DNA from: a virus
Length of the DNA: 29,223 nucleotides
Reading direction: 5' to 3' (one strand)
Virus genome (UHGV): UHGV-0364466
In this document: positions 1 through 25,975 of the stretch, piece by piece
How the letters are laid out: each line of letters starts with the position of its first letter
How positions within the stretch are numbered: the stretch's first letter is position 1
The notes under the pieces: model-generated
Databases searched by the model: none
What the model saw: the letters and a program-made list of their open reading frames with translations, nothing else
Told to the model about the DNA's origin: nothing
Translations under genes and position numbers: made by a program

Positions 1-1427
1 ACATTAATACCAGACAATACATGACCTGACGGGCACTGGAAATTCCATGTTTGCCAGTTGTTCACTCCATAATATTGCTGTGAACCAAGTCGAACATCTT
101 TCACATATCTGGAATCAAAATTGCCATAGTTGCCGGGAATAACTTGCGCACCGCAAAGCCAGTTTCCGTTATTATCCATGTACGCCTGACCATCGGTGCC
201 ATTGGCTGTCCTTGAATTATTAATCATGTAGATGCCAAATTGCTTATTTCCCAGACCGCCAATCATAAATTTTCGGTCGGCATGGTCCTGACGGAGCAAG
301 GCCTGGGCGCTATCAGTGTTAACTATATTTTTCCCAAAGATAGCGTTGTTATCGCGCATCTGAATCCACATACCATTACCGCTGTTAATAGCAAAACGGT
401 TTGCAAATATATCCCCTGTAACATCAAGACCATGCCCCATAGTTATGCGACCAGTTCTAAGATTAAGCGTAAAGGGGCGTAGTGGTCCTATATCGCCATT
501 TTCCCCCTCATTTTCTCGGGTAGGGATGATATGAAGGCATTCTTCAGAACGGCGGAAAATGGCACCAAAAGATGAATTAAATATCCTCAGTGCATTGACT
601 GTCGATATTTTTACTTCACTGCTGAAAAGGGCTTTAACAAGAACATACAAAGCATCCCATTTAAGATTCATCAGGTCTTTTGTTGTGGTGCTTTGTTTGC
701 TTCTCCATTTGAAATATTCATTGCCGTTGTCGCCTGTTTCAAACCACATGTATGAATCAGTGTCGCTGTCGGCATCATTTTTAAACCCAATCTTTGCCCA
801 GTCAGTATTTCGAATCCAGGCAAGAATTGAGTCGTTTTCAAAAGTAAGTCCACCGGACAAGGTATCACCTGTCTTTTGAACAGCGTTACCAGCCTTGTTT
901 ACCGTTTCCTGTAAACCGAGGTTTTGGATAAACAGCGGCTTATTGGGAATATCTGCTCCGTTCCGGTCTTTTGCCAGACGGGCATTGGCATTATCCATCG
1001 CAATTTTCACCGCTTTTGCGGTGGCTGCCAGCGTTTCACTGGGGCTGTCAGTGGCACTGGTTAGCTGAACGAGTCCTTTTTTGTTCAGGCTGGCATCATA
1101 GATATCCAGATTTTCACGTGCTGTACGCTGTGCTGATGCCCCGGCAGTTTTAATTTCGCTGAGGTTATTTTTTATCAGCAGCGCGTTCTTGTTCATGATG
1201 GCTTTAATGGACAGTGCAAGCTGGTTTAATTTTGTTTTATCCGGTTGAATACCGGCTTCTTCCAGCGTGTTTAATAACTCCGCCTGCACAATATTAAACC
1301 AGTCCATGCCGGGCCATGTGATAACATTATTCCCGTCACCTTCTGAAAACCAGCGAACGATAGCACTACGCTGGGCGGATACGGGCGGCATGACGGTTAC
1401 GCCGCTGTCGTTATCAATATAAAACAT
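1..1427 (-). CDS. Tail fibre protein (Mu S-like), N-terminal ~475 codons; continues beyond window start
   Basis: Manual minus-strand translation from ATG at 1427..1425 (overlaps gp48 stop) is open to position 1: MFYIDNDSGVTVMPPVSAQRSAIVRWFSEGDGNN...GDTLSGGLTFENDS...; tail-fibre-like composition. Missing from the ORF track because it has no stop inside the window. Confidence 0.8.
   Translation of the reverse strand, partial: MFYIDNDSGVTVMPPVSAQRSAIVRWFSEGDGNNVITWPGMDWFNIVQAELLNTLEEAGIQPDKTKLNQLALSIKAIMNKNALLIKNNLSEIKTAGASAQRTARENLDIYDASLNKKGLVQLTSATDSPSETLAATAKAVKIAMDNANARLAKDRNGADIPNKPLFIQNLGLQETVNKAGNAVQKTGDTLSGGLTFENDSILAWIRNTDWAKIGFKNDADSDTDSYMWFETGDNGNEYFKWRSKQSTTTKDLMNLKWDALYVLVKALFSSEVKISTVNALRIFNSSFGAIFRRSEECLHIIPTRENEGENGDIGPLRPFTLNLRTGRITMGHGLDVTGDIFANRFAINSGNGMWIQMRDNNAIFGKNIVNTDSAQALLRQDHADRKFMIGGLGNKQFGIYMINNSRTANGTDGQAYMDNNGNWLCGAQVIPGNYGNFDSRYVKDVRLGSQQYYGVNNWQTWNFQCPSGHVLSGIN
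906..931. other. gix-type recombination site (Gin/Hin/Cin invertase crossover site) inside the tail-fibre gene
   Basis: Plus strand reads TTCCTGTAAACCGAGGTTTTGGATAA, which matches the Mu gix site as I recall it, with the AAACC-GA-GGTTT dyad core. It encodes LFIQNLGLQE of the fibre protein. Only one copy is in the window. Confidence 0.6.
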
Positions 1428-1969
1428 TAGTTATCTCCGTCATGGTAAACAAATTTATAAATCTGATGCGCGGGTTTATATTTCTCCAGTAAACATTCCA
1501 GCGCACCCGATTCATAAACACGTAACGGCGTCAGAACATTATCCAGCACCGTTGCGTTGCGATAATTTTTAATACCGTAAATATTGACCTGCGTAACCCA
1601 CTGGCCTTCTGTGGAATCCGTCAGCCTGACGGTAAAACCGTACTGCGCAGCCAGCCATTCATAAAAGCGCCGACTCAGATTGCCGGTCATACGCATTTTA
1701 TTCGCGGCAGCCCGCTGGCGTTCTGACAGGGTGCCGTTTTCGCTTGTACAGTCCGGCAACCCCAGAAATGATTCCCACTCCCCCAGATACCAGCGGGATG
1801 TGGAAGGGAAACGCTCCCGCAGCATTTGCCGCGCATCATCCGCCGCAGTGGCAATCACGTCACTGATGGCCTGCGCCAGCGCAGATAATTTGCTGTCGGG
1901 GCTTTTATTCCAGGCAAGCCCTGACGGCAGTAATTGCAGAAAGGCCGTCTGATAGGGTGTTACAGCCAT
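1427..1969 (-). CDS. Tail/baseplate protein, Mu gp48-like (DUF2313, YmfQ-like)
   Basis: 180 aa, MAVTPYQTAFLQLLPSGLAWNKSPDSKL...; recognised family and position between baseplate J and tail fibre. Confidence 0.8.
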   Translation of the reverse strand: MAVTPYQTAFLQLLPSGLAWNKSPDSKLSALAQAISDVIATAADDARQMLRERFPSTSRWYLGEWESFLGLPDCTSENGTLSERQRAAANKMRMTGNLSRRFYEWLAAQYGFTVRLTDSTEGQWVTQVNIYGIKNYRNATVLDNVLTPLRVYESGALECLLEKYKPAHQIYKFVYHDGDN

Positions 1970-3042
1970 TCAATTGTCCCCGGTGTTAACAGTTCCGTAT
2001 TCTCCGAACGCTGGATCTCTGTCGGGAAACGCACTTCAAAATCATCCAGACCGGTAACACCTGCCACCGCACGGATAATACGGGAGGGGGCAAGTGCGCC
2101 GCCCGGCGTCACCTCATTAAAAAACATGGTATTAATGGCGTGGGTAATAGCCTGTTTCAGTTCGGCTGTCTTCGGTGATATATAAATCCGTGGATTTACC
2201 GGCTTTGCCTTTGGCGCAAATACAGTGACATTTACACCGTCAGGCTGTCCGACAATCAGACCGGTGATCGGGTCAGTATGACCGGCGATATAATCCGCCA
2301 CGCGTTCCACGTCTGCCGGTTGTGGAAAAATATTGCTCCGGTTATCCATAACAAACGTCACCCCGACTGTGCCACCACCTTTCCATGTCGGAAAACACCA
2401 GGCACGGGTAACGCCGCTGACTTCACGTGCCCAGCGAACGTAATCAAACTGATTACCGCCGAACGGAGGATACTGGACACGATATTCCAGCCGTGACAGC
2501 AGCTCAGCTGCACTCTCAATATCAGCCCCACCGGAAAACCCTTTTACAGTGATGGCATCGGAAACAACACAGGCAACCGGGGTGATCAACGTTAAAAGGG
2601 TATTCTCACCGGTATTTCCTGCCTCACCGGCAGCCAGTGCGGTAACGGTAATTTCCGTCGTTCCTGCACGGTCAATCACAATGGCATCAGCCAGGCTGTA
2701 AACCACACCATCAGCACGCTGCCAGCGTGTACCGGCAGGAATGGTGGTCGCTGCCGATGTGGTGACAGTCAGCGGGCCGCTGGCGGCTGTCGCCTGTTTG
2801 CGGCGCACCCCCCAGAACCGGCAGTGCTCCAGCAACTCATCTTCATCTGCTGTCGACGGGATAATCTGCCGTCCAACCCATGAAATATGCTCGTGACAAC
2901 CGGCAGCAAGGCCCGCCTGAGCATAAGCAATGGCACTCAGCGTTTTTTCACGGGCCTGAGGCCAGCTACCCGGCAGGCGCTGTTCAATATTCTGTTCTGT
3001 ACGGGCAATCAGCGATGATAATGTCGGTGGTGAATAAGCCAT
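1960..3042 (-). CDS. Baseplate J-like protein (Mu gp47)
   Basis: 360 aa; baseplate J family by sequence character and synteny; overlaps neighbours by a few nt. Confidence 0.85.
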   Translation of the reverse strand: MAYSPPTLSSLIARTEQNIEQRLPGSWPQAREKTLSAIAYAQAGLAAGCHEHISWVGRQIIPSTADEDELLEHCRFWGVRRKQATAASGPLTVTTSAATTIPAGTRWQRADGVVYSLADAIVIDRAGTTEITVTALAAGEAGNTGENTLLTLITPVACVVSDAITVKGFSGGADIESAAELLSRLEYRVQYPPFGGNQFDYVRWAREVSGVTRAWCFPTWKGGGTVGVTFVMDNRSNIFPQPADVERVADYIAGHTDPITGLIVGQPDGVNVTVFAPKAKPVNPRIYISPKTAELKQAITHAINTMFFNEVTPGGALAPSRIIRAVAGVTGLDDFEVRFPTEIQRSENTELLTPGTIEWL

Positions 3043-3480
3043 TTAAACCCCGTTAAATGCTGCTTTAAACTCATAAGGAATAACGGAACCATCCGGTAAT
3101 GTCAGTGCAATGTAGAGGTATAACCAGCCCTGATGTAACTGTTCCGCCCTGACGTTAATCGCACTTACCCGGCCCGCTGTTTTCAGCCATTCCAGCGACT
3201 CTTCGGCATACCCTCTGGCGCGTTCCAGCGTATCCGGTGTGGCTTTTTCACGTGATAACAGCCACAACCGCGAACCGATGGGGCGGTCGCGGTAACTGTC
3301 ACCCCACCATCCACGGCGATCATCTGAACCATCCGGCAGCGTGTCAGAATCCAGCGCGCGCCGGTCGGTAAACAGGGAGATTGTCACATCGGTTGTCAGG
3401 CTGTCGTCGGTCAGCATATCAATGCCATCCTGTGCAATATCGCCGCGTCCGTTCGTCCAGATAATGGCTAAATCGGTCAT
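3043..3480 (-). CDS. Baseplate protein, Mu gp46-like (GP46 / gp25-W-like)
   Basis: 145 aa, MTDLAIIWTNGRGDIAQDGIDMLTDDSLTTDV...; size and position typical. Confidence 0.8.
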   Translation of the reverse strand: MTDLAIIWTNGRGDIAQDGIDMLTDDSLTTDVTISLFTDRRALDSDTLPDGSDDRRGWWGDSYRDRPIGSRLWLLSREKATPDTLERARGYAEESLEWLKTAGRVSAINVRAEQLHQGWLYLYIALTLPDGSVIPYEFKAAFNGV

Positions 3481-4070
3481 TGCATTGGCCCCGTGGTTCC
3501 GCCGCTGTCGCCACGGTGGATATGCTTATCCGTCGATTTGCCATTGATGATGGCATCCGGGGCAGTAATATTGCTGTCGAACTGGCTTTTACCTTTAACG
3601 CCCAGACCTTTCTGGATCTCAACGTCGCCGGTAAACGTGGTTCTGGGTGTGTCAACGGTCATACTTTCATCAGCGTAAACCTCAACCGTTTTACAGGTAA
3701 TGATGCAGCGTCCGTCCTTTGTCAGCCTGATACGATGCCCCTCGTGGTGGTAAATGCCTGCATCACCCGGTTCAAGATTTGTCGGGCGGTAGCGGCGGTC
3801 TTCCACCACAACAGCAATCCCCTGATCACGTTGTGCGCCCACACAGGCAATCAGCGCCTCTGCGCCCGGCAGGGGAACGCTGAAATGCCCGTAATTTTGC
3901 AGGCGCTCCACTTCATCAGATTCCTCATCATCCAGCAGACCGACCTGCAGGTTCTGAACCTTTCGTCCGTCGTGAATCACGTTAACAACGGCGCGGGCCA
4001 CCATCAGCCGTACACGACGCATCAGCGGCATCAGCAGGCGGTTCAGGGCGGAATCATTTACTCTTTCCAT
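3477..4070 (-). CDS. Baseplate assembly protein V / spike (Mu gp45)
   Basis: 197 aa with gpV-like N-terminus (MRRVRLMVARAVVNVIHDGRKVQNLQV...) and Gly-rich C-terminus. Confidence 0.8.
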   Translation of the reverse strand: MERVNDSALNRLLMPLMRRVRLMVARAVVNVIHDGRKVQNLQVGLLDDEESDEVERLQNYGHFSVPLPGAEALIACVGAQRDQGIAVVVEDRRYRPTNLEPGDAGIYHHEGHRIRLTKDGRCIITCKTVEVYADESMTVDTPRTTFTGDVEIQKGLGVKGKSQFDSNITAPDAIINGKSTDKHIHRGDSGGTTGPMQ

Positions 4071-5191
4071 GGTGGTGTTTTCTCCGGGTGTCTGCGGAAA
4101 TAAGCCTCAACCAGATCATCAACGCCATCATTACCATCCCCTCTGGATTTGCGATCGCTTTCAACCGGCACCAGAAAGCCTTCGCGTGGTGCAAGGCTGA
4201 CGCGGGTTTTCAGCCCGTCCTGGTCATTCAGTATCAGGGTGACTTTGCTGACCAGTAATTCCGTGGTTTTGATGGCATATTTCGAGTCATCAATAGTGAC
4301 CAGCAGGTTCGGCATCCAGAGTTGCCCGTCCTTGCGAGTCCATCCGTCAATTTCTGCCTCAAAGGTGATGGATTTTGCCAGTCTGCGGCGTTGCTCACGC
4401 AGGGCGCGGGCCTGTGCATCCTTCGCAGTAATCTTGCTGTCAGCAATGATGATCATCGGTCTGTAACGGGTCACATCACTGTCAGTGGCGGTCCCTTTCC
4501 GGGAGACGATACTTTTCGCATCAATATCATCACCCTCAGCACCATTTGCGCGGGCATACCCCTTGACGGTGTATTCGCTGAACCGGTCGCGGAAGTCTTC
4601 CTCAAAATCCAGTGTCAGCAGATTTTCTCCGAGAACCAGCTCATCAGTGGCTGTGCTGGCAGCCCGGCTGAATACCAGCTCTCCGGCGGCATTGCTGGTC
4701 ATCAGTACACCGCGTGCGCGGGAGGCACGCACCAGCGCCTCATAAACGGTTTCTGAATGGTCCAGCGTGAAGCCGGGAAAAGCTGCCGAACTTTCCTTAT
4801 CGGAAAGCTCCCAGCGAACGGTAACGCCATAAGGGGCGCTCAGGTCACGCGCAATCTGCTCCAGTGTGCGGTTTTTCCACTGTCCGCCACTGTAAACGGC
4901 AGCACAGTCAATCAGGTCAGCCGTTTTGTCACGTCCGGCGATAGTGATTTTCATGCTGTCAGCGGTCATCTGGCGTCGCCGCGAATCGATATAACCGGTG
5001 CAGACAATCTGCCCGTCGATTTCCAGCGTGAACGCCTTCCCCGGTGCCAGCCCGGATAAATCTGTACCCGGTGGCACATTCACCCCCAGCTCAAAATATC
5101 CGGCTACGGATTCAATCGAGCGGGTGACAGAGACTGACGTCCAGCCGGTAAAAAGCCTGCCATCCGTTCGCAGCGTGACGGTATTACTCAT
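4058..5191 (-). CDS. Tail protein P (Mu gp44, P2 gpD-like baseplate hub)
   Basis: 377 aa, [35 protein letters not shown]...; position between N and gp45. Confidence 0.8.
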
Positions 5192-6671
5192 TAATCACCT
5201 CAATACTGACACCACCGGGAACAAACAACGGGTTGCTGATACCGTTCCTGCGGGCCAGCCGTTGCCAGTTCCGGCTGTTTCCTGTGTAACGGTACAGGGC
5301 CACCATTGCAGGCATCGTCTCCGGCAGGCGGTGCGTTTCACTGCCCGCCAGTTGCAGCCCGCGTTTTTCCAGGTCGGCAACAACCAGCAGACGCAGTTGC
5401 GTAAGCTGAACGCTGTCTGTCGAAAAGCCCTGCTCAGATGCCGTCAGAATGACGGTATCCAGTGCAGCCCCCAGCATGGCGGCTGTTTTTCCGATATCGG
5501 ACACACTTTCAAATACCGGGGGCGTGGCTGTACCACTGTCTGAAAAGGATACCTGTGAAAAGCCGCCGTCCGGGGTTATGGCAGTTAACTGTAACTGTCC
5601 CTGTGTGACAGTAGCAGATGTGCTGCTGGCCCCGCTGGCTGTGCCGGTTGTGGTGGACGGGGCATCCAGTACAGGTGCACGGGCGGCATTATCCATCCGG
5701 CGACTGAAATCCAGTGCCGCAGTCAGTGCCTGGCTTGCTGCCTCCGCCCGGTATGTCTGTGCTGCTGCCAGCATGACGTAGTTCAGTGTGGCAATATTTT
5801 TTTCTGCAACCGGACTGTTGTACGAGGTTGTGATTGTCCCCTGTCTGCCTGCGGTGGCGGCATGGCGACGTTCGAATCGCTGCGCCAGACGGTTCCATGT
5901 GGAAAATGCTGTCCGGGTATCGCATAACGATGAAACGCCGGACAGCGCCCCCATCAGCGAGGAGGCCAGCATGGCAGGCTGGTTAATCAGGCTGGTCACA
6001 GAGCCTTTCATCGCAGAAAGCGATCCCATCAGACCGCTGACAGTCTGCGTAACCCCCAGATTGTCCACCGCATCACTGATATCATCGATGACACCGGTTA
6101 CAGCTTCCATCACGGCGGTTGCCGCCGCAGTGCCATCTTTTACGGTTTGCCAGACAGAGGACAGCGTATCTCCCAGAGAACCGGTTACAGCAACGGCCTG
6201 TGCCGGTACGGCTGCACTGGTGTCTGTCTCTGCGTCCGGGGCAGTATCCTGCAACGACGGATAAACGGTAACGGTGAACGCGTAATAATTCAGTTCATCC
6301 GCTTTAGTGCGGCATTCCCATGAATCCACCATGACGTCCACAGTGCCGAAATCAGGATGTACCAGCTCACCGCTACCCGGAGCATCAAGAGCATCCATCA
6401 GCGCACCCGCTTCATCTCTGGCTGTTTCTGCGTTGCTGTTCAGAATGCAGGCGCTGAATGTACGGGAGCGAAGCTTTTTCCCCAGGTCATTGACGCCGCC
6501 GGTATCACGTAACGGGTACTCGCGTTTAACCAGGCGACGTCCGCCAGCCTGTTTTTGCTCCTCGATGACGAGAAACGGCACGTTACGGAACGTGCCTTTG
6601 CCGGTTGTTTTCTTACCACCGCTGATTTTATCCCGGACAGCATTAACGGCATTTAAAGCATCTTCAAACAT
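5184..6671 (-). CDS. DNA circularisation protein N (Mu gp43)
   Basis: 495 aa, N-terminus [41 protein letters not shown] typical of Mu N; follows tape measure. Confidence 0.8.
5546..5580 (-). promoter_or_regulatory. Candidate C-dependent late promoter (P_P-like) inside the N gene
   Basis: Minus strand CATAACCCC (plus 5572..5580), then exactly 20 nt, then -10-like TATCCT (plus 5546..5551). Same architecture as the elements upstream of lys and I, but about 360 nt upstream of the P start. Confidence 0.3.
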
Positions 6672-6675
6672 GGTT

Positions 6676-8748
6676 TTACCAGCCTGTAATGTAGTTATCG
6701 CCCGCGTAAATATTCAGCCCCATACCATCCTCGGTGACACGGGAACTGGCCAGACGTAACCCCTCGCCAAGTTCGACGCGCAGCGAGGCTTCCGCATTCA
6801 CTTTTTGTTCCTGCGGCTCCTTATCCGGGGCCGTCCATTTCTGATACAGGTCGGTTACAAAACCGCCCAGATACTCCCCGGCGACACTGCCCAGCGTGGC
6901 ACCGGCAACCGTACCCAGCGGTCCGGCAAGGCTGCCAACGGCACCGCCGAGCCATGCACCGGCTGTACTGCCAATTGCGCCTGCTTTTTCATGGGTTGAC
7001 GCCTGCTCATCCATCAGGACGGGGGCAAGCTGGAGTGCCCCCATTACCGGGCCACCCAGGCGTGACAACGCACGACCGGCACCTTTCCCCATCCAGCCCA
7101 GCGCCCCGGCACCTTTTGTCACAACCCGACCGATCGCACTGCCTGCAAGTTTGTTTCCGATACCGGAAAACCACCCGCCAACAGCACGCCCGGCATCAGC
7201 CAGCTTTCTGACCGTTCCCGTAACCAGTTGCCCGGCAGCACTGCCTGCAAGCCTGCTCAGAAGACCGGATTTACCGGCTAAAGGTAATGGTGCAGGCCGT
7301 GCCGTTACCGGTACGCCGGGTGGGGGTAATGCCAGTACAGGGCGTGGTGCAGGTAATGCCAGCGGCTGTGGCCCGGACAGCAATAACGGCTGGCGGGGTA
7401 ACAGCGGGGCCATTCTTCCGCCGCTCCGTACGCGACGACCGCCGCCACTCCCGTAGCCACCAAATCCACGGGGCCAGTTGATGACAAACACACGCTGAAT
7501 GCCGATACCCTGCAACAGCGTCTCAGACGTCATGGCATCCGGGACCGGCAGACCTGCCTGCCCACGTTTGCGGTTTCGCATCCAGCGCCACATACGACGC
7601 CCGGTTTTAAACGGATAACTGGCAACCTGCCATGAGGGTTTTGCCACGGCCCAGCCTGCTCTCAGGGCTTTATTGGCAAGCCAGACAGACACCAGAACAG
7701 CAGCCAGTTTTTTCAGGCTGACAATATTCTGGTCAACCCATGCCAGCGCATCTTTACCCGGTTTCAGCCAGCGCCATAACTCCTGCGCCGCGATTTTTAC
7801 CGTTCTGAACGTGGTCAGAAATTTCTGACCAATGTTTTCTGCCAGTGCGTCAAGTTCCCCGGATTTATCCGCCATGTCGTGCCAGTTAAGCACCCGGCGC
7901 ATCTCGTTCTTGATTTCTTCAAAGGGGCCGCTGTTTGCCACCTTCGTGCGAAACTCAAGCAGGTTGCCCTCCATCTGGGCCATCATCCCGTCCCAGGAGT
8001 TCATGGCAGCCGCCTGTGCGCCTTTTGACTGCTCCAGCAGGGTCCGGAATACCGTCAGAATGGATTTCAGGCCCAGCTTGCCTTTTTCACCCAGCTTACG
8101 GATTTTTTTCTCATCCTCACCCGTTGCATCTGCCAGCACCTTGTAAACGTTGATACCGTAGCCGGTCAGCAGGTTGGCGTCCGCCGCCGTGATTTGCTGG
8201 CGGGCAAACATCTGTTTGAACTGTAACGATGCACCCTGTGCAGTGGGTAAATCCCAGCCATGCATCGCGCCCTGATTCTGTAGCATGGTGATGAACTGTT
8301 TTACCTGGGCATCAGTCATGCCAAACGCAGTTGATGTGCGGATCTCCTGCAGAACACCACCCAGCCCCCAGGTGGTTTCTTTTGCGTTCTGCTTCGCCCA
8401 CGCCATCATGGCCTGTGCTCTGGCCTTATCGCCGTGATAGAGCGAGTTCATGGCGATAATCTGCTGCTCACGCTGAGCGGCTGCACCAATAAACAGTTTA
8501 TTGGCGGTGTAACCCACGCCAGCGATACCCAGCGCCCCGGCTGACAGCATTCGGAATGTACGGGTTGACAGTGAACCCATTCTGTCAATGGCACCAGAAA
8601 CGCGCACAACCTCCATACGCAGGGCACGAAGGGAACTTTGCCCGCTACGGGACAGGACGTTTATCTGGTTCGAATACTGGCGGGAACGCCGGGAAAGATT
8701 GCCATTAAGATCAATAATGACAGACGCCTTTAAGCGTTTCCCGGTCAT
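6676..8748 (-). CDS. Tail tape measure protein (Mu gp42)
   Basis: 690 aa; Gly/Ala-rich repeats and a Pro-rich low-complexity segment; sits between chaperone and N; AGGAAA SD 6 nt before the ATG. Confidence 0.85.
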
Positions 8749-8892
8749 AGAGATTTCCTGATTTAACGGTGATATTGAGAGAGGGTTTTAGCCTGCTGGC
8801 AGTGCCGGAAAAAGCGGGACAGCGGGAGAGACAAGGCCCATTCCGGGCCACTTTTCAGAATAACGCCAATCGCTGTCGCCGCTTTCTCAATA

Positions 8893-9327
8893 TCATTCCG
8901 GCACCGCAGCCACTCGCCCCCGTTCTTGTGTCAGCGATGCCGCCACAGCCATGTCGTACATTTCTGTGGCCAGCGACAGACGCTGGAAGTCATCGACAGA
9001 CAGTTTACGAATCAGCGCCATCGACAACGGGCCTTTGATGCAGCCCACGCTGGCAATCTGTCGGCGCAGCATTTCCAGTCCCATCCGGGACGGGGAACTG
9101 ACCAGCACCGGACCTTCCTTGCTCATTACCAGCTTTTCAGCAGCCGCCTGGGCATCAATCAGATCGCCTGCGGTCAGTTCACGCAGCGTCACGTCATACT
9201 GCATTTCAGTCTCGTCACCGGTGCCGAACGGCAGGCCGTCTTTCAGTTTCAGCACGCCGGACTGAATTTCTGCCACAATGCTGTCATGCAGTTCCTGTGC
9301 TTCAGGACCTAAATTCATTTCGTCCAT
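8893..9327 (-). CDS. Tail assembly chaperone (Mu gp41-like)
   Basis: 144 aa acidic protein between tail tube and tape measure; ATG start verified. A 144-nt gap separates it from the tape measure (see frameshift finding). Confidence 0.6.
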   Translation of the reverse strand: MDEMNLGPEAQELHDSIVAEIQSGVLKLKDGLPFGTGDETEMQYDVTLRELTAGDLIDAQAAAEKLVMSKEGPVLVSSPSRMGLEMLRRQIASVGCIKGPLSMALIRKLSVDDFQRLSLATEMYDMAVAASLTQERGRVAAVPE

Positions 9328-9336
9328 TGTTTCCCC

Positions 9337-9693
9337 TTATGCAATGCGTTTGCTTTGTTTTGCCATCAGTACCAGCGAAATTTCGCCGCCGTCGTTTTTC
9401 GGTTCATCTGCCTGCCAGGCATTCGCCATCATCCAGGTTTCACCGGTGTCTGCCTGAAACTCTGCCGTGATGTTTTCCCAGCCGATGATTTCATCCAGAC
9501 CGATATCACCACCGCCCGGAATTTTGCATTCCAGCTTTGCGGCACGTGGTTTACCTTTCCAGCCATAAACCCGCGAGCCGGTCACTTCTTCACGGGTGAT
9601 GCCGGAAGGCGTGAAGGAGGCCCCTTCCATCGTTTCAAGCTCTATGCCATTGACACGGATGAACGCCACCCCCTGACGCTGATTTCCAGCCAT
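9337..9693 (-). CDS. Tail tube protein (Mu gp40 / M)
   Basis: 118 aa, directly downstream of sheath; ATG start verified. Confidence 0.8.
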   Translation of the reverse strand: MAGNQRQGVAFIRVNGIELETMEGASFTPSGITREEVTGSRVYGWKGKPRAAKLECKIPGGGDIGLDEIIGWENITAEFQADTGETWMMANAWQADEPKNDGGEISLVLMAKQSKRIA

Positions 9694-9702
9694 AAATGCT
9701 CC

Positions 9703-11190
9703 TTACAGAATGAACTGAACTTGTGCCGCGAAAATGCGGAACTGGTTAATCAGATTCGGGCCGCACAGCACATCAAGACGGTCTTTGTCGTCCTTGTTAC
9801 GTGCCACATACAGCTCCTCTTTGAACGTGTCGAAATCCTCGACCAGTCCGGCGTTTTCCCATTCTTCAAACAGTGCCAGCAGCTCCGTTTTGATCACGGA
9901 TGGCGTCACCACGGCCTGACCGGTGGCAAAGCGGGTGCCATCACTTGCCAGCTTGTAGTTCGGGAATTTCTGCGTGATGCGGGTTCGCAGCGAATAACGC
10001 AGATAACTCAGCGTGGCGATGGTATTCACGTTCAGATAAGACGGATCACTGTCACCGTACTTGTTTGTGCGGTACATCGTGATCATGCGTTCAATCTGCA
10101 TTTCACCACCATCATTCACGTTAAACGTGGAGATGCCGTCAAACAGCAGCGCATTACGTTCTGACCAGGTGAAACGATCCCCCACCGCAGGCGGCATTCT
10201 TCCGGGCAACGTCAGCGTCTGGAGAGGACGCGCCGGGTCGATGGAAAGCGCCTGGCTGGCAACGGCACACAGTGTGGCGGCGTACAGGTATGACGGTTCC
10301 GGTGCACCGGCAATCCCCATACAGGAGATCAGATGGTCATTACGACTGACACCAAACGTGGAAATATCCCCATACGTGCCGGACAGCACTGTCACGGCAA
10401 AACCATCAGCCTGATTGACCGGTCCCCAGCGTTCCTGCAATTCAGTGCGTAACAGATTCAGGTTCGGTTCATCGGTATAGGGCATCACAATATATTTGTA
10501 TTGCAGATCGCCCATTCCCGCGATACTTGCGCTGATATCCGGGTTGCCATTTTTCCCAGAGGCGGCTTTGAATGCCGTGATAATCCCGTAAGGGGTGGTT
10601 TCACCCGCGTAATAGTTCCAGCGCACGTCCACGGCAGATAATGCACCCGTAAATTTTGCACTCAGAACCACATCAGCATGAGTGTCATCATCTCCGCTGT
10701 CTGCGCGAACTTCTGCCGTCACCGGTAAATCCGGCTGGCCTTTGATTCGGGCAACCAGCAGGTCAGCCAGCGCCGCTCCCGTTGCACCTGCTGCGACAGA
10801 TACCGCCAGTCGCTGACCGGCAATGTAAGTCACAAGCGAGCCGTTTTCGCCTGCCGTTCCTGACAGTGAAATTTCACCGACAGCAACATTACCGGTGCCG
10901 TTCCCCTGCGGAATACACCACAGCTCCGCCACGCGGTTAGCGTTCAGGAATGCATCTGCCATCAGTGCCAGCATGGAACCCTGACCAAACGCCGCACTGG
11001 CCTGTGAGCCGGAACGGATACGGACAGGCACGTTTGGTGCCGCACTGGCTTTACTTCCGCTTTGCCCGAACATCAGCACACGCTGACGGGGTGCCGGTGT
11101 TCCGCTGACGGCATTACTGTTATCAAATTCGATATACGTCAGAGGAACGCGAACATCTGACGGGATCGCGTTAAATGAAATATCGCTCAT
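9703..11190 (-). CDS. Contractile tail sheath protein (Mu gp39 / L)
   Basis: 495 aa, [34 protein letters not shown]...; sheath family character; ATG start verified. Confidence 0.9.
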
Positions 11191-11393
11191 TTCGATTTAC
11201 TCCGTTTTTTCGGCGCAGCGTCGGTATCATCCGCCGTGTTTTCGGTGCTCCCGACTTCAACCACATCACCGGCTGCAAGGCGACGTATCCAGAAACTGTT
11301 ACGGGGCTTTTCTTCTCCCTCAGACGCCAGTAATTTCATCGTGAGCGGGTCACGGATGGCTTTTCCCGCTGCGGGTTTAATTTTCAGCATCAT
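11187..11393 (-). CDS. Mu gp38-like small protein (DUF2635)
   Basis: 68 aa; tandem ATG start; upstream of sheath as in Mu. Confidence 0.6.
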
Positions 11394-11925
11394 GATCCTT
11401 TTCCTGATTCACATTGATATGTGCGGCAAATTCCGGGGTTTCGTCCGGGAATTTCCAGGTCTGCCAGTGACGCTCGTAATCATCCAGCGAATCCATGTCC
11501 ACCACGGACGGCAGCGGGGTAGTGCCACTGAACAGAACGCCGTAAAGCACCACACCGGCATTGATACGGTTGTCGTCACAAAGATTTCTGACCTGCGTCA
11601 GTCTCATCCCGGTGGTCGGGCCAAACGTCTGACCGTTAACACCGGCAATCAGTCGCTCCACAATCTGATAAATACCGGGCCGGTTTACCGGTTCCCCGTT
11701 CAGCAACTCCGCCACGACAAAAAATGCCCAGCGACTTTCAACTTCCCGACGCGTACGCCCCTCACCACAGCCCATCCATGCCAGAAATACCGATGGAGGG
11801 GCCAGAAAGAGACGGTGCACATCCTCGTTAGTCCATGTGCCGGTAAGGGGGTCCACCTGCCGCAGGGTTGCCCCAAACAACTCACGAACGCGCGCCAGCA
11901 GTGCGGCTTCGGTTTCTTCCAGCAT
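11377..11925 (-). CDS. Mu gp37-like protein (DUF1834)
   Basis: 182 aa; ATG verified; synteny. Confidence 0.7.
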   Translation of the reverse strand: MLEETEAALLARVRELFGATLRQVDPLTGTWTNEDVHRLFLAPPSVFLAWMGCGEGRTRREVESRWAFFVVAELLNGEPVNRPGIYQIVERLIAGVNGQTFGPTTGMRLTQVRNLCDDNRINAGVVLYGVLFSGTTPLPSVVDMDSLDDYERHWQTWKFPDETPEFAAHINVNQEKDHDAEN

Positions 11926-12350
11926 CAGATAAACCCCTTCTGTTTTCGTGAGAAGACCGGCGCGTCAGACTGCACCTGCACAAGGTTTTCACCATCCGGC
12001 GAGGCTGCCGTCCTGCTTTCCACGCCGGGATCTGTTTTGCCATCGCGCACCTGTTCCAGCCAGCGCACTGTGTCCCTGTAGGCAGCGGTGATCTGCTCGG
12101 TGGGTTGTGATTCATTCAGATAAAACCAGGCCACCACGCAACACTGCCGTTTCAGCAGTGAGGGGACGACGGTAAGCGGCAGAACAAAGCGCGCGGCGAG
12201 ATAGCCATCAATAAAGGCCGAAGCATCTGCCAGTGCCTGTTCTGCCACGGCATCATCCGGCTGACCGTCCGCTGTTTTAGGGCGGGTGAGAATATCCAGC
12301 CGCGTACGTGTATAGCGGGCGCACAGGTCATTTACCGTCGCGTAATTCAT
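11925..12350 (-). CDS. Mu gp36-like protein (DUF1320)
   Basis: 141 aa; ATG verified; synteny. Confidence 0.7.
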   Translation of the reverse strand: MNYATVNDLCARYTRTRLDILTRPKTADGQPDDAVAEQALADASAFIDGYLAARFVLPLTVVPSLLKRQCCVVAWFYLNESQPTEQITAAYRDTVRWLEQVRDGKTDPGVESRTAASPDGENLVQVQSDAPVFSRKQKGFI

Positions 12351-12757
12351 GCATCCGCCTCAGCCAGCGCCGCTTTGATTTGCGCACTGCTCACCGGTTC
12401 CCCCAGCGCCGCACTGACGGCTTTCACTTTGGGTTCCCCCCCTGCGGTAAAGTGCTCCGGGTTTGCCTTATCCAGACCGGCAACGGTCGCACAGATACGG
12501 GTATTCAGATCGCCCACACCCAGAACGTCCAGCCCCCCAGCCTCAGCGAGCGTTTCTGCTGACGATGCAGATACCACAGACAGCACGCTGTCGGCACGAA
12601 TGATCGCCAGTTGTTCTTCGGTGACTTCCACGGTGTTTTCGCCACGCGTAAAGGCGATTCCGGCGCGGCGGTAGACCGGACGAAGGCATTTAATAATCGC
12701 CGTGCAAGTGATGCGAGAAGTGTCCAGCCGTTGTGAATTAAGCGAAGTGCCTGACAT
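12347..12757 (-). CDS. Mu gp35-position hypothetical protein
   Basis: 136 aa; strong SD (AAGGAGGAG) 8 nt before ATG at 12757; directly downstream of the capsid gene and hairpin. Confidence 0.55.
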   Translation of the reverse strand: MSGTSLNSQRLDTSRITCTAIIKCLRPVYRRAGIAFTRGENTVEVTEEQLAIIRADSVLSVVSASSAETLAEAGGLDVLGVGDLNTRICATVAGLDKANPEHFTAGGEPKVKAVSAALGEPVSSAQIKAALAEADA

Positions 12758-12789
12758 AACACATGCTCCTCCTTTTCCTTTAAATCAGG

Positions 12790-12817
12790 TTAAAAGGCGG
12801 TCTGAACCGCCTTTTAA
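12790..12817 (-). terminator. Stem-loop (partial terminator/attenuator) immediately after the major capsid gene
   Basis: Perfect 12-bp inverted repeat TTAAAAGGCGGT / ACCGCCTTTTAA with 4-nt loop, 6 nt after the capsid stop; U-rich 3' side on the minus-strand RNA; followed by the SD of the next gene. Confidence 0.45.
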
Positions 12818-12823
12818 TGACGG

Positions 12824-13741
12824 TTACAGGTAGTCAGCGACAACCAGTTGCAGCTTGCCCTTCATCTCGTTGGAGACGGTGGTATTGCCATCCGCGAACA
12901 GTTCACGGTTAAGCAGTTGCTCTGCGGCTTTTTCCAGCCCGACCGGTACAACGATATGTGTCGGCTTCAGGCCCAGCTTCTTACCGCCATCACCTTCAAA
13001 AGAGCGCATCAGTTGCCAGCCCTTCCAGAGGTTATCCAGCGTCAGATCGCCTTTTACCGCGACAGCCATCTGCCAGAAGCCGTAACCGGCAGCACGGCGG
13101 GCGCTGGCACCAAACAGGAACTCGTTATCCATAAAAACGTGGTCGTCATCGATACGGGTACGTGCGACCAGTTCCGGTTTGCGGCGCTCCTGGAAAATCA
13201 GCGGTTTGACTGCGCGGGAGCAGTCCAGCAGATAGAATGGCAGACCGCTGAAGCTGTCCTGCTCAACGATGTTGGAGGTATTAACCGCGCTGCCCGTGCC
13301 ATCCACATTCGGATATACCGGATGCTCCTTGTCGAAGAAGTTCTGACCGTCATAGCAGGGCTGGGTAAAGCCATCTTTCAGAAGTTTAAAAATCAGCTCA
13401 TCCGGCTGAACTGCCGCAGAACGGCCCATCTCCTGAAAAATCGGCGCATAAATACCCAGATTGTCATCCTCGAAGTCATCACGGGAAATACCCACGGTGC
13501 CTTCAAACGTTTTATTGGCGATGGAGTAGCCATGCGCTTCCATTTGCTGAATGGTTCGCTTACCCACCCATTCTTTCAGGGTCGGGAATTTACCCAGCCA
13601 GCCATAGGTATTACTGCGGGTGGAAGAGTTCACCACCATTGCAATTTTGCTGTACTGCGACGGGGCGTCTTCAAGACCGCCCTGAAAATCCTTACGCCAG
13701 GAGGTCATCAGGGCTTTAATGGATGCCGGGGTGACAATCAT
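12824..13741 (-). CDS. Major capsid protein (Mu gp34 / T)
   Basis: 305 aa, MIVTPASIKALMTSWRKDFQGGLEDAPSQYSKIAMVVNSS...; ATG verified; follows I. Confidence 0.9.
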   Translation of the reverse strand: MIVTPASIKALMTSWRKDFQGGLEDAPSQYSKIAMVVNSSTRSNTYGWLGKFPTLKEWVGKRTIQQMEAHGYSIANKTFEGTVGISRDDFEDDNLGIYAPIFQEMGRSAAVQPDELIFKLLKDGFTQPCYDGQNFFDKEHPVYPNVDGTGSAVNTSNIVEQDSFSGLPFYLLDCSRAVKPLIFQERRKPELVARTRIDDDHVFMDNEFLFGASARRAAGYGFWQMAVAVKGDLTLDNLWKGWQLMRSFEGDGGKKLGLKPTHIVVPVGLEKAAEQLLNRELFADGNTTVSNEMKGKLQLVVADYL

Positions 13742-14823
13742 TTTTCTTGTTCCTGTTTCATTTTCAGATACTCAGCCTCTGTAATGCCGAGCGCCTTCAC
13801 TGCTGCCTGTTCATCAGCAGACAGCACCGCCACATCCGTTTTTTCCTGCGACGGGATTTTCGCTGTGGTGGTCTGCATGGCAGATAACGCAGCGATGGGC
13901 TGTTTTTTCTCAAGCTGTGCCGACAGTGCCGCCACGCCAATCTGACCGCCAAGCTGTTCCAGATAGGCACGTTCGCTTTTGAAAATGCGGCCTTCCTGTT
14001 CCGCCTTGTCCAGAACGGCGCTCAGGCTGGCTGTGGCGCTTTGTGCAGTCGCCTGTGCCAGTTCATCACGCAGGGCGTTGTAGCTTTCCACCGGGACGTA
14101 TTTCGTCAGGTCAACGGCGGCTTTCTGTGCCTTTTCCAGTTCGGCGGATAACGACGCCACTTTTCCGGCATCTGTTTCGAGTGCATCAAGCGCACTCAGG
14201 GCCGCGCTGGCCTGTTCATCGGTAATGTCTGCATTTTCGGGGACCGTCACCCCAAGACGCGCAAGCAGCTTGCGCAGCGTTTCATTCATGGGTTTGTTCT
14301 CCTGTTGAAGGATGTCGGGAAGGTATGCCGCCAGTGCGGTCAGCTTTTTCATGCCGGTGGCACCGGGGTCATTGGTCAGCGCAGCAAGGCGGATTTGCAG
14401 CACCGCACCGGTGGCGGTGTCATACGGAAAAACCGCAGAGAGATAACCAAATTCGCCGTCATCGATGCGCTGCTGTGCCGCCGCCGTCCAGCGTGGGTGG
14501 ATAAATAATCCTTCACCTTCACGCCACTGCATTTCATCGGCGTTAAACCAGCCAGCCGCGACGAGTTGTTCCGGGGGCAATCCTTTGTCCTTACGTAGCT
14601 GGTTATGCTCGTAATCAATCAGCACGTCCTGGTTGAGCGCGCGAACGCCTTCAACCAGACGCCCGGCAATCTCACCGTCGATGAACCACCCCTGACCGCC
14701 TGTCACATCAAACGGACGACCATCACGGGCACTGAAATGACCGGCAGGCAATAGCTGGCACCAGCCGTCATCGTCAATGGACAGCGCACTCAGTGCGACA
14801 ATGCCAATCGCGTGTTTTTTCAT
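13738..14823 (-). CDS. Head maturation protease / scaffold protein I (Mu gp32), with probable nested scaffold Z
   Basis: 361 aa; N-terminal protease-like region and a C-terminal Ala/Glu/Lys/Gln-rich coiled-coil half; ATG verified. Confidence 0.85.
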   Translation of the reverse strand: MKKHAIGIVALSALSIDDDGWCQLLPAGHFSARDGRPFDVTGGQGWFIDGEIAGRLVEGVRALNQDVLIDYEHNQLRKDKGLPPEQLVAAGWFNADEMQWREGEGLFIHPRWTAAAQQRIDDGEFGYLSAVFPYDTATGAVLQIRLAALTNDPGATGMKKLTALAAYLPDILQQENKPMNETLRKLLARLGVTVPENADITDEQASAALSALDALETDAGKVASLSAELEKAQKAAVDLTKYVPVESYNALRDELAQATAQSATASLSAVLDKAEQEGRIFKSERAYLEQLGGQIGVAALSAQLEKKQPIAALSAMQTTTAKIPSQEKTDVAVLSADEQAAVKALGITEAEYLKMKQEQEK

Positions 14824-14855
14824 GTCCTGCTGCTCATCATGGTTTGTGAGCAGTC

Positions 14856-14890
14856 AGTTTGCGGGAGGTGCGGGAAAATCTGGGGTTATG
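14856..14890 (-). promoter_or_regulatory. Candidate C-dependent late promoter P_I
   Basis: Minus strand CATAACCCC (plus 14882..14890), 20 nt, then -10-like CAAACT (plus 14856..14861), about 30 nt upstream of the I start; same spacing as the lys-upstream element; in the 196-bp G-I intergenic region. Confidence 0.4.
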
Positions 14891-15019
14891 CTATTTGAGT
14901 ACTGGAGAAAGAAAGTGGAAGGAAGATAAAACGGGATTCATACACCGTTAAATACCGGTTTAAAAATCCCGTGGCGCGTTTTAAAAAATCTGTGCGGCTG
15001 ATTTTATGTCTGATTCCGT

Positions 15020-15490
15020 TTATTGCCTCAGAGCGGCGCTGACGCGTTTTCTGATGGCATCAAAAATTTCCTGTTCCCCGGTCTTATCCAGCCCCATATA
15101 AGGACGCGCAGGAACACCTGCCGGGCGGGGTGCCATATCGGGTGTACCGCCCCACTGATGAATGGCAGCATAAATTTTTGGCGAACCAATCAGGGCATAA
15201 TCCTGTCCATAATCGGTGGTAATGCTGCGTGCCAGATCGCCATGCAGGGTAAGAATACTGCCCGGAACAAAACCATGATCCTGACGCCATGCCTGCCACG
15301 AATCGCTCCACGCTTCCCAGCCTTTCCCTGTATCCGGGTCTGCCTGCCGTTCAAATGCCTGTTCCGTGGATGACAGCAGCGCCGCAGCCATCACACGGGG
15401 AATGGCGCGGTCACGTGTAACGGTTCCCAGTTCATCCAGTGCAAGCTGAATACGTCGCACATCCACGGCAACGTTCATATCAAGACTCAC
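15020..15490 (-). CDS. Virion morphogenesis protein G (Mu gp31)
   Basis: 156 aa; starts at GTG (15490) with GGAGGTG SD 7 nt upstream; alternative ATG at 15478. Confidence 0.8.
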   Translation of the reverse strand: MSLDMNVAVDVRRIQLALDELGTVTRDRAIPRVMAAALLSSTEQAFERQADPDTGKGWEAWSDSWQAWRQDHGFVPGSILTLHGDLARSITTDYGQDYALIGSPKIYAAIHQWGGTPDMAPRPAGVPARPYMGLDKTGEQEIFDAIRKRVSAALRQ

Positions 15491-16806
15491 TTATTCACCT
15501 CCACATGCCCCTCCAGTATGTCAATCATCCCGTCGGCAATCGCGGCTTCAAGCGACTGTGCAGATACGCGGCTGATACTGACCAGCACATCCGCCCGGTC
15601 ATTCTGTTTGCTGACAGCCTGCGATGTTCTGACCACAACTTTTGCAGTGCCGTCGCGGGTTGCCACAACATACAGCAACTGGTGGTTCTCCCTGTCCCAC
15701 AATACCGCCTGTGGTTTTGCCATCAGCGACGGCAGACGCTGTAAATCTTCCGTTTTCAGGGCGGCATCAGCAGTGGTCGCCAGACTTTTCCCGTTCATTA
15801 CAAGCAGACGGGCTGGCATATTCCCGGTGCGCTGATATACGGCTTCAGCCACGGATCCCGTCATAAACCCCAGCGCCCGGATTTCATGACCGGTCTGACG
15901 TGATCCTGCCAGGCGTTTAAGCCAGAGGGAAAAAGCAAGCTGACGCTCCCGGCTGTTATTCAGTGTCTGCACAACCTGCTCACGCAGCTGCGCGTCGTGA
16001 ATTTCCACCAGTTTTCGAATCAGTGCCTGATCCGTACCAAATGCCGCCGAACCGGGGTTATATGACCAGCCCATATCCGGCGTCATTTTTACCCGACCGT
16101 TGTCAAACGTGGTTGACGATGTGCGGAAAATCTCTCCGGTGCTTTCATCCGTACCGGCATCCACTTCGCGGGTATTCATGAATGACGCACCATAACTGAC
16201 CTGTAACCCCAGCTCTTTCATGCGGGCCGCAGACAGCGCCCGGACGCGACAGCGGCAGTTCCAGCCATTGGGCGGGTAATGCGTCTGCCAGAAAATGTCG
16301 TCATACCGGAAAACCATATTGTGCAGCCGCGCATGTTCCGGGCGTGTTCTGCCATCCATAACGGCAACGTACTGCCAGTACGGGTACAAATCTGCGGTAT
16401 TCATCATCTGTGCATAACGTCCCGCCCCGTACGCTGTACGGGTATTGACGTTATAAATGGTTGCCAGACGACGCGGACTGCCCAGCTCGATTACCTTTGC
16501 GTTTCCGTCTGCATCCACGATGATTTGTTTTCCCCACCATCCGAGTTTTTGCAGCCGGGGGGCCAGTGTGCGGGTAAATTCCTCACGGGTGATGCCTTCA
16601 CTGACAGCCCGCTCCACTTCCTCACGGATTGTGGTCAGTACATCCATCCGGGTGGCTTTGGCAACGGTAAAGGCGCGGGCGTGCGCGTCTGCCAGTTGTT
16701 CGTACCAGTTCCAGGTGATGTTGTAGCCTTTGGCGCGGAAATACGCGACAGCCTCCTTTGGCGGGAGGCGTGCGGCATACGCCAGATCAATGGTCTGCTG
16801 CGGCAT
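15487..16806 (-). CDS. Head morphogenesis protein F (Mu gp30, SPP1 gp7-like)
   Basis: ORF track starts at GTG 16842; I prefer the in-frame ATG at 16806 (MPQQTIDLAYAARL...), giving a 20-nt overlap with the portal gene. Confidence 0.85.
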   Translation of the reverse strand: MPQQTIDLAYAARLPPKEAVAYFRAKGYNITWNWYEQLADAHARAFTVAKATRMDVLTTIREEVERAVSEGITREEFTRTLAPRLQKLGWWGKQIIVDADGNAKVIELGSPRRLATIYNVNTRTAYGAGRYAQMMNTADLYPYWQYVAVMDGRTRPEHARLHNMVFRYDDIFWQTHYPPNGWNCRCRVRALSAARMKELGLQVSYGASFMNTREVDAGTDESTGEIFRTSSTTFDNGRVKMTPDMGWSYNPGSAAFGTDQALIRKLVEIHDAQLREQVVQTLNNSRERQLAFSLWLKRLAGSRQTGHEIRALGFMTGSVAEAVYQRTGNMPARLLVMNGKSLATTADAALKTEDLQRLPSLMAKPQAVLWDRENHQLLYVVATRDGTAKVVVRTSQAVSKQNDRADVLVSISRVSAQSLEAAIADGMIDILEGHVEVNK

Positions 16807-18325
16807 CCAGACGCCCCCATATATCGGCAACAAAAATGGCACGGGTCAGCATGTCGATAAGTTCTGCATCATCCATCTGCGGATATAATGAAGCGGCTTT
16901 GTTCATGGCGGCTTCCGGGCCATCTTTCAGCACAGAAAAAATGACGGGTTTCAGCAGGGGATCAACCGAACGCTGCCAGTCTTCCGGTGAGACGCCCATC
17001 CGGTCGATATCATCCTCCTGCGGGATATCTTCAGCGGATAATGCAGCCTCTTTCTGCGGACCGTTATCCATGACGACCGGTTGAGCAGTAAACACGGCTT
17101 CATCACCGACCGGCTGTGGAATATGAAGTTTTTCCTGTATCCAGGAGACCGGAATACGCATTCCCGCCGCCAGTTTCGGAATGGCGTCAGACAGTGCCGT
17201 AATATCACCCGCTTCACTGGTATCAAATACAATGCCCGGCAGGCGGTTAATATCAATGGTGCTGTCACTGTTCAGTGCCAGCAGGGGATAAATCAGATCA
17301 CGGTTAATACTGCGGGCAAGCTGGCCCACATCCGCGTTACGGATTTCCCGGCGAACCTCATCATGCACTTCACCCAGCGACCGCGCGCCTTTATCGCCAG
17401 CCTCTGTGGTCAGGGTGCCGCCCAGAATGGCTTTTGAAATCGCTTTTTCTGCCCAGCCAATCATCGCCATAAAAGGGTCTGACTGACCATCTGCGGCGCT
17501 CTGAAAATCCAGCGTCATCCCCATCGGAATAATGCCACCGGCACGTCGCCCGATATCCATCACGGCCTGCATCAGCGTGGCTTTCTCGCGGTTCGTTGAG
17601 CCGGTCGGATATTTACCGACGCGCATGGGGAGTCCGTAAATTTCCAGAAACTCTGCAAAATCACGCACGGAATAGTTTTTAAAAATAAAAGGCCAGATAA
17701 GCGTGCGCACAAGGCCATTGGTGCCGACATACCCGGTGCGGGATTTGGCCCGGTGCATAAACCAGCCGAACGGTTGCAGCTCCAGCCCGTGATAAGACGC
17801 ATCACGCAGGCGTAATTCGTTCAGATTGTCGGGGTTCGCGCAGAACAGCGCCGGATCGCGATGATGCAGCGCCACCGGCACGCGCATTTTCCCCAGCCAG
17901 CCCCATTCAATCTCCTGCATGGAATAGCCCTTGAGAATGGCATCACCGGCATCAAACAGGGCATCTTCAAACCACGCCGCATCATGCAGATATTCATTCA
18001 GCATGTCGGCGTCTTTTTTCTCCTGTGCGCTGGCATCACGTGCCGGAGCGATGCGCCATTCCAGCGCCTGAATGGCAAGGCGGCGTTTGCTCAGTTCGGA
18101 AAAAAGGTGGGTGTCCTTTTCTTCCATATCAAAGGCCAGGTCAGCCTGTGCTGTCAGATCACCGCGTTCGGCATCACGCAGCATCTGCGCGGCCCGGTTC
18201 GGCGTCACACCACTGGAAGGATGCTCCTGCGTACGCTTCATGACCATTGCCAGCTCATCGCTGCGGGTCTGCATTTCATCGTCAAAATCAAACGGCTGCC
18301 CGGAAATATCCAGAATACGGCCCAT
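16787..18325 (-). CDS. Portal protein H (Mu gp29, DUF935)
   Basis: 512 aa, MGRILDISGQPFDFDDEMQTRSDELAMVMKRTQEHP...; ATG verified; downstream of terminase. Confidence 0.9.
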   Translation of the reverse strand: MGRILDISGQPFDFDDEMQTRSDELAMVMKRTQEHPSSGVTPNRAAQMLRDAERGDLTAQADLAFDMEEKDTHLFSELSKRRLAIQALEWRIAPARDASAQEKKDADMLNEYLHDAAWFEDALFDAGDAILKGYSMQEIEWGWLGKMRVPVALHHRDPALFCANPDNLNELRLRDASYHGLELQPFGWFMHRAKSRTGYVGTNGLVRTLIWPFIFKNYSVRDFAEFLEIYGLPMRVGKYPTGSTNREKATLMQAVMDIGRRAGGIIPMGMTLDFQSAADGQSDPFMAMIGWAEKAISKAILGGTLTTEAGDKGARSLGEVHDEVRREIRNADVGQLARSINRDLIYPLLALNSDSTIDINRLPGIVFDTSEAGDITALSDAIPKLAAGMRIPVSWIQEKLHIPQPVGDEAVFTAQPVVMDNGPQKEAALSAEDIPQEDDIDRMGVSPEDWQRSVDPLLKPVIFSVLKDGPEAAMNKAASLYPQMDDAELIDMLTRAIFVADIWGRLDAAADH

Positions 18326-19980: not shown

Positions 19981-20035
19981 GGGTGAAAAATCCGGTATAA
20001 ATTTTCAGGCATTAATCAGTAAAAAAGAGGTTTTT

Positions 20036-20230
20036 ATGAAAGAGAAACTGACCATTGATCAAAAAATCGAAATTGCCCGGATAGCCGTGCAAATGTTTGA
20101 ATCCACCCGGGCAAAAGGCGTTTCACTTGAGATCTCCTGTTCAGGAAAAGCATCAGTGGAAGAAAACACATTTAATGCTTTCTACAAAATTGTTGAAAAA
20201 ACCGTTATCGGTGGACCTGAGAATAACTGA
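20036..20230 (+). CDS. Hypothetical small protein (64 aa) on the opposite strand, between terminase genes
   Basis: ATG at 20036 preceded by AAAGAGG SD at 5 nt; MKEKLTIDQKIEIARIAVQMFESTRAKGVSLEISCSGKASVEENTFNAFYKIVEKTVIGGPENN; AT-rich surroundings; GC hairpin (GGCCCG-N7-CGGGCC) 6 nt after the stop. Confidence 0.5.
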   Translation: MKEKLTIDQKIEIARIAVQMFESTRAKGVSLEISCSGKASVEENTFNAFYKIVEKTVIGGPENN

Positions 20231-20402
20231 TCACCTGGCCCGCTGTAGCCGGGCCATCCACCAGTTGCATAACCAGATACAGGGCCTCGGCCATAATTCG
20301 TGGATGGACTTCCGGATCCTCATCAATCTGTTTTTTCACAACGGGCCACAGTGCCATTGCCAGTTCTGTTGAGGTCTTGTATTTAGTTTTTTCATCCGCC
20401 AT
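20205..20402 (-). CDS. Hypothetical small protein (65 aa)
   Basis: GAGGAG SD 6 nt before the second ATG (20402); MADEKTKYKTSTELAMALWPVVKKQIDEDPEVHPRIMAEALYLVMQLVDGPATAGQVISYSQVHR; 3' end overlaps the plus-strand gene by 26 nt. Confidence 0.45.
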   Translation of the reverse strand: MADEKTKYKTSTELAMALWPVVKKQIDEDPEVHPRIMAEALYLVMQLVDGPATAGQVISYSQVHR

Positions 20403-20412
20403 TTTCATCTCC

Positions 20413-20583: not shown

Positions 20584-20593
20584 AACGTAACGC

Positions 20594-25254: not shown

Positions 25255-25284
25255 TTGCTCACCTCTCATATTAAGGAATGAGAT

Positions 25285-25974: not shown

Positions 25975-25975
25975 A

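Follow-up and report, generated by a model that had tools for sequence, protein, structure and literature searches.

The G inversion of phage Mu has been understood since the 1980s, and the Fis-dependent recombinational enhancer on which it depends is reportedly located inside the 5′ part of gin (Kahmann et al., 1985). Dimers of the Gin invertase bind the gix sites and, together with Fis, form a synaptic tetramer (PMC3575834). Staggered double-strand breaks are then made at the centre of the site via a phosphoserine (Ser9), followed by a 180-degree rotation and religation (PMC3575834). In this way Gin inverts the 3-kb G segment and changes the tail-fibre proteins (PMC3575834). In the table of Din-family sites, gixL and gixR of Mu are both given as TTCCTGTAAACC GA GGTTTTGGATAA (PMC3241671 Table 3). 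Invertible fibre segments of 2-3 kb with 26-bp crossover sites are also present in Phi1, Phi2 and Phi4 of E. coli EC958, and mixtures of orientations in the EC958 prophage fibre segments were directly visible in long reads (PMC4134206). The locus described here resembles these three in layout, although they are other prophages and their site sequences are slightly different (PMC4134206). It also shares its 12-2-12 site architecture with the C segment of P1 and P7 (cix, Cin), the P segment of e14 (pix, Pin) and the Hin/hix system of Salmonella, and it has in common with the Din-family fibre systems a constant fibre N-terminus that is fused to alternative C-termini. Unlike gix, however, the cix, pix and hix sites have an AA core and other half-site letters, and the genome backbone differs as well. 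Hin controls a promoter and not a fibre gene.

Here we examine a locus at the left end of a virus genome (UHGV-0364466), using a window of 29,223 nucleotides, by which we mean the whole stretch of DNA that was analysed. Our reading is that positions 906..931 are very probably the S-proximal gix of a phage Mu-type G-inversion system whose Gin is encoded off-window to the left, and the small uncertainty that is left concerns only whether this copy keeps its partner site and its invertase.

To judge from alignment, the window as a whole is a Mu-type prophage that is read on the reverse strand. When aligned to the full Mu genome, its reverse complement spans Mu from 4402 (in kil) to ~32880 (in S) at ~97% identity, and window 627..19979 forms a single block with Mu 12900..32258 at 97.7%. 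Among phage records, the best megablast matches were Mu, D108 and related Mu-like phages at ~97% (top 97.4%), and the best match to the window among complete E. coli genomes was 97-98%. The gp48 and gp47 proteins of the window occur widely, and its exact gp44 protein is absent from the record. Between the small and large terminase genes there are ~610 bp (19980..20597) where Mu has 12 bp. This stretch is absent from D108 and SfMu, is matched in part by the Yersinia phage vB_YpM_Tongde (90%) and contains a 67-aa ORF (20205..20408, minus strand) which belongs to PHROG family 21398, of unknown function. In the early (semi-essential) region three patches had no blastn match to Mu (25255..25964, 26141..26677 and 28578..29086), and the ORFs in them (e.g., 25663..25989, 25976..26734 and 28583..28996, all on the minus strand) fall only in PHROG families of unknown function. 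Where the window differs from Mu, none of the small ORFs had a Pfam match.

The gix site and the two parts of the fibre gene

The elements of the tail-fibre gene S that fall within the window are the following:

920..1427, minus strand: Sc, the constant N-terminal part of S (~170 codons), outside the invertible segment, assigned by translation and DNA identity
1..917, minus strand: Sv, the C-terminal part of S, variable and here in its expressed (G(+)-like) orientation, inside the invertible segment, assigned by translation
906..931, minus strand: gix crossover site (gixL in Mu nomenclature), composed of a 12-bp half-site, a 2-bp core and a 12-bp half-site, in frame in S
918..919: the GA at the centre of the site, TC on the coding strand, where staggered cleavage and strand exchange take place, and true boundary of the invertible segment
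898..931: 34-bp inverted repeat containing gix, encoding residues common to both fibre forms (...FIQNLGLQETVN)

The S ORF lies on the minus strand; its ATG, at 1427, overlaps the stop of the gene before it, and it stays open to the left window edge through 475 codons with no stop. Its protein matches the Pfam families Phage_fiber_2 (8e-18) and Gp34_trimer (1e-11) and is 83% identical to tail-fibre protein S of Mu. The 26-mer TTCCTGTAAACCGAGGTTTTGGATAA is located at 906..931 on the plus strand of the window, starting at the second base of a Phe codon, and its core GA (918-919) falls within a Leu codon that is CTC on the coding strand; across the site, the ORF is translated as ...NKPLFIQNLGLQETVNK.... 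This 26-mer occurs once in the window, even when up to three mismatches are allowed, with an expectation of zero matches from 100 dinucleotide-preserving shuffles, and the runner-up on either strand of the whole window reaches 17/26. Neither a search at up to three mismatches nor the inverted repeats of the window yielded a partner site, so the partner must be off-window.

At the level of sequence, the window 26-mer is a true gix and not merely gix-like. It agrees with the published gixL and gixR at 26/26 positions, synonymous ones included, and the Mu genome (AF083977) has both exact copies, one at L001 4739..4764 and the other, as the reverse complement and beside gin, at L001 1681..1706. 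The original prediction had recognized it as a member of the Gin/Hin/Cin crossover family lying in frame in the tail-fibre gene, and this assignment is confirmed by its identity to the published sites and to both Mu copies; the peptide LFIQNLGLQE, which had been attributed to the 26-mer alone, is encoded by 906..935.

The position of the segment boundary can be given to the nucleotide. In the Mu record the ‘G-segment boundary’ is placed at 31966, within S (31458..32972) and 509 nt into the gene, which by arithmetic from the S start falls on the latter base of the central GA, window 919. Since the exchange point is the central GA, the boundary of the segment is 918-919; of the two half-sites, the inner one (906..917) is part of the invertible segment, and the outer one (920..931) stays with the constant part. 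That the core is the exchange point is supported by the hybrid junctions of a rearranged scaffold (L004, described below), which switch exactly at GA, and by the inner and outer half-site variants, which segregate across GA in flipped relatives. It had been proposed that the part of the fibre gene at 1..905 lies inside an invertible segment; this holds, with the Mu boundary mapping to 919, but the boundary itself is the 918/919 core and not 905/906. Beyond the site proper, a BLAST repeat match pairs window 891..931 with the gin-side copy in Mu.

On the constant side, the DNA of Sc is 98-99% identical to all Mu-like relatives down to gix, and homology with these relatives often stops at gix (break points 877, 891 and 911). 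The protein is nearly identical to Mu S up to residue 260, diverges from ~260 to 345 and diverges again at the tip. In the window, the middle divergent segment corresponds to 441..626, for which megablast gave no match to Mu. The tip corresponds to 1..84, which is unlike both Mu and D108 but does match fibres of P2-type and other prophages. By these alignments, the expressed fibre end is a mosaic when set against Mu S. None of the genome-representative, viral and metagenome collections contained exact 36- to 60-mers from window 461..520, and on account of this absence from all three we regard the fibre variant as uncommon. The exact 100-mer of window 1..100 is present in 16 viral contigs which share only the fibre cassette with the window, homology ending at 931 or 939.

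This sharing of the cassette extends to several known phages. The Sv DNA is 87-92% identical to the fibre cassettes of P1, P7 and D6, with homology ending at gix, and when P2-type phages and the viral contigs are considered alongside these three, identity of the cassette DNA ranges from 87 to 95% and stops at the outer site edge, again 931 or 939. Such sharing is familiar from phages with related invertases, among which fibre cassettes are known to be exchanged.

The left flank as seen in relatives

As the partner gix, the alternative fibre end and the invertase gene are off-window, it is only in near-identical relatives that the architecture of the system can be seen. To stand in for the left flank we used an E. 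coli contig of 1.37 Mb (L044, GCA_026573455.1) that was found with the window N protein and is not a proven source of the window. L044 is identical to window 1..1804, differs from window 1..6671 by 3 mismatches and no gaps (99.96% identity) and is colinear and gap-free with window 1..16671. The two sequences have 68 differences, most of which are packed into ~1 kb at window 8958..9991 (tail-tube and gp41 chaperone genes), and to judge from this clustering the stretch has the look of a short recombined tract in prophages that are nearly identical elsewhere.

Past S, the order of elements in L044 is U, inverted U′, the alternative fibre end S′v, an inverted gix, the invertase, com, mom and host DNA. 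The complete S contains 34 further codons, bringing the protein to 509 aa, and is followed by the chaperone U (175 aa) and then the convergent U′ (177 aa). S′v is a 320-codon open frame that leads out of the second site in the frame of S (NLGLQETVNQASG...). The second gix, TTCCTGTAAACCGAGGTTTTAGATAA, is inverted and has the same GA core and a single mismatch (G-to-A, in the outer half); the two sites are 3098 bp apart, which in window terms puts the second ~2.15 kb past position 1. Compared over the longer repeat, window 898..931 and the gin-side copy at L044 18805..18838 differ by 1 mismatch. The invertase gene starts 55 bp beyond the second site and encodes a 197-aa protein with Resolvase and HTH_7 domains and Ser at position 9, identical to Mu Gin at 192/193 residues. 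From gix through gin, L044 and Mu are 97.1% identical over 730 nt, which measures conservation across the stretch where a Fis-dependent enhancer would lie. The gin-side outer-half variant with its G-to-A change, GGTTTTAGATAA, creates a TAA in the S frame (L044 18831..18833, and likewise in most relatives). As this TAA immediately flanks the crossover point on its outer side, translation from the gin side cannot enter the silent cassette.

What had been predicted for the off-window part is borne out in this proxy: the window has no partner site, and the second inverted site, the alternative cassette and the invertase all lie leftward in L044. The suggested leftward extension, run by proxy on this contig, returned the inverted gix with its one mismatch at the distance given above and then a serine invertase. 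The window had also been described as containing only one of the two possible fibre C-termini, and it does contain a single form, albeit an incomplete one, as the window ends 34 codons before the S stop and cuts Sv.

Compared with the G segment of Mu, the locus is alike in the sequence of the site, its position in S (~codon 170) and the flanking order of genes 47, 48 and S, and through the L044 proxy also in having a 3.1-kb segment, a second site in inverted orientation and an invertase that agrees with Gin at 99%. It is unlike Mu in that overall DNA identity of the window is ~97% and Sv is mosaic, with the protein at 83% to Mu S. The gin-side site of L044 also departs from that of Mu by the one outer-half G-to-A change, and this variant is the form tabulated as bixR in the PinB system of Shigella boydii (PMC3241671).

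The same arrangement is widespread in the family. As relatives we took 28 distinct places at which the gp48, gp47 or N protein of the window is encoded without any change. In 23 of them gix sits at the corresponding point of S, a second, inverted gix lies 2.7-3.2 kb from it, and a Resolvase+HTH_7 gene follows directly beyond this second gix. The gin-adjacent inverted copy in the relatives is partly in non-coding DNA, and homology between otherwise unrelated fibre cassettes starts or stops at gix. The remaining five places are L006, L011, L049, L014 and L004. Two of these, L006 and L011 (10543..13107), have the same gp48 as the window and encode an 854-aa S with a single chaperone, and there is no gix and no invertase before com/mom; they are a fixed-fibre variant of the Mu-like family. 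L049 reaches a contig end, and L004 is a rearranged scaffold with only one intact gix. In L014 the whole invertible segment (12133..14492) is a run of N with one end in each of the two gix sites (…GGTTTAC NNN… GTAAACC…), and a failure of assembly precisely at the inverted repeats is what one would expect if the segment is repeated, or present in both orientations, in the reads.

Orientation of the segment and rival readings

Comparison of relatives provides evidence that the segment flips. The segments of L009 and L013 are 99.9% identical over 2704 bp, but with respect to Sc and gin one is flipped against the other. The inner half-site variant TTCTCGTAAACC (TTCTCG...) adjoins S in L009, whereas L013 has it next to gin, with the outer half-sites constant in both, CGTTTTGGATAA by S and the gin-side variant with the TAA by gin. 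Swapped inner halves combined with fixed outer halves are what exchange at the central dinucleotide predicts. Similarly, the prophages of E. coli 12A and FDAARGOS_1059 have gp47, gp48, recombinase, Com and both chaperones under the same accessions, with the two chaperones in swapped positions. We also built a flipped junction in silico by joining the first 400 nt of window Sv through gix to the gin flank, and this was contiguous in 210 complete E. coli genomes (best 98.3%); the window orientation, in which the cassette is contiguous with Sc and genes 48 and 47, was found in 17 complete E. coli genomes. As far as these assemblies go, the segment occurs in both orientations when one genome is compared with another.

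Against this background, two other readings of the site were weighed. One would regard the locus as a frozen relic, in which gix was kept by descent, the partner or the invertase has been lost or inactivated, and the fibre is fixed unless a related invertase acts in trans. The left flank is off-window and a degenerate relative does exist in L004, rearranged with one intact gix; prophage Phi4 of E. coli EC958 has a truncated invertase and is presumably inverted in trans (PMC4134206). However, L044, which is identical to the window over 1..1804, has the full intact system, as do 23/28 related places, and the window gix is without mismatch to the functional Mu site, leaving the relic reading very improbable. 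The flipped near-identical segments and the hybrid junctions that exchange at the GA core show that the site is used, and this weighs directly against the other reading, namely that the 26-mer is kept only as coding sequence for the fibre peptide FIQNLGLQE and resembles an invertase site without functioning as one. The 26-mer is indeed coding, and the peptide is conserved in Mu, P1 and P2-type fibres, but the match to an experimentally defined site is 26/26 at the DNA level with synonymous positions included, the inverted copy of the relatives adjoins the invertase gene and is partly in non-coding DNA, and the homology of unrelated fibre cassettes starts or stops at gix; a purely coding origin is one to which we attach next to no credence.

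Under the preferred reading of a Mu-type G-inversion site, we infer from the relatives that the window's own element carries the same left flank, and we further infer that inversion is currently active in it. The partner would lie ~2.15 kb beyond window position 1 as an inverted TTCCTGTAAACCGAGGTTTT(G/A)GATAA, followed by a gin-like serine invertase gene. A Gin dimer would bind each 26-bp gix and Fis would bind the enhancer in the 5′ part of gin, with the two Gin dimers pairing on supercoiled DNA. Both sites would be cut with a 2-nt stagger at the central GA, rotated by 180 degrees and religated, and as a result the ~3.1-kb segment would be flipped. Sc would then be fused in frame to S′v and the matching chaperone U′ placed downstream, and this swap of fibres would lead to the binding of a different bacterial surface receptor.

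A candidate secondary site and what the locus means

One further element of the window came to attention through the rearranged relative:

2454..2479: candidate secondary site TACCGCCGAACG GA GGATACTGGACA, in baseplate gene 47 (minus-strand CDS 1960..3042), 13/26 to gix with a GA core

L004 is a 1.04-Mb metagenome scaffold with a ~4.5-kb inversion that has one end at the gin-side gix and the other midway through gene 47. Its junctions at 9490..9520 and 13960..13995 are reciprocal hybrids of gix and the secondary site, the switch falls exactly at the GA core and gene 47 is split. The same secondary-site sequence stands at window 2454..2479. The secondary site is no standout match to gix, as dozens of window 26-mers with a GA core reach at least 13/26, and the L004 junction is absent from all 5426 complete E. 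coli genomes. An assembly artefact was considered and rejected as the likelier origin of L004; the two parental sites have just GAGG in common at the junction, and each of the reciprocal hybrids occurs, albeit in what is a single scaffold. Use of a secondary (quasi) site has been documented for Cin of P1 (Iida and Hiestand-Nauer, 1987, as cited in PMC4134206), and we found no report in the literature of a gix/gene-47 inversion in Mu-like prophages. On balance we lean towards the view that Gin recombines gix with a weak secondary site in gene 47, and that the ensuing ~4.5-kb inversion splits the gene and cripples the prophage. If this is true, L004 would be a natural case of invertase-driven prophage inactivation at a quasi-site.

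The feature at 906..931 is the classic Mu G-inversion site, already known, and the window adds nothing new scientifically to the knowledge of G inversion. What is mildly new is the mosaic fibre end unlike that of Mu, and the inversion at a secondary site in one related scaffold. For annotation it has modest consequences: window 1..917 belongs to an invertible segment and should be labelled accordingly, with the fibre gene marked as one form out of two alternatives. When such prophages are assembled, either orientation may appear, or the sequence may break at gix, as in the gap of L014. Overall, since the expressed fibre end differs from that of Mu, the host range of this prophage may differ as well.
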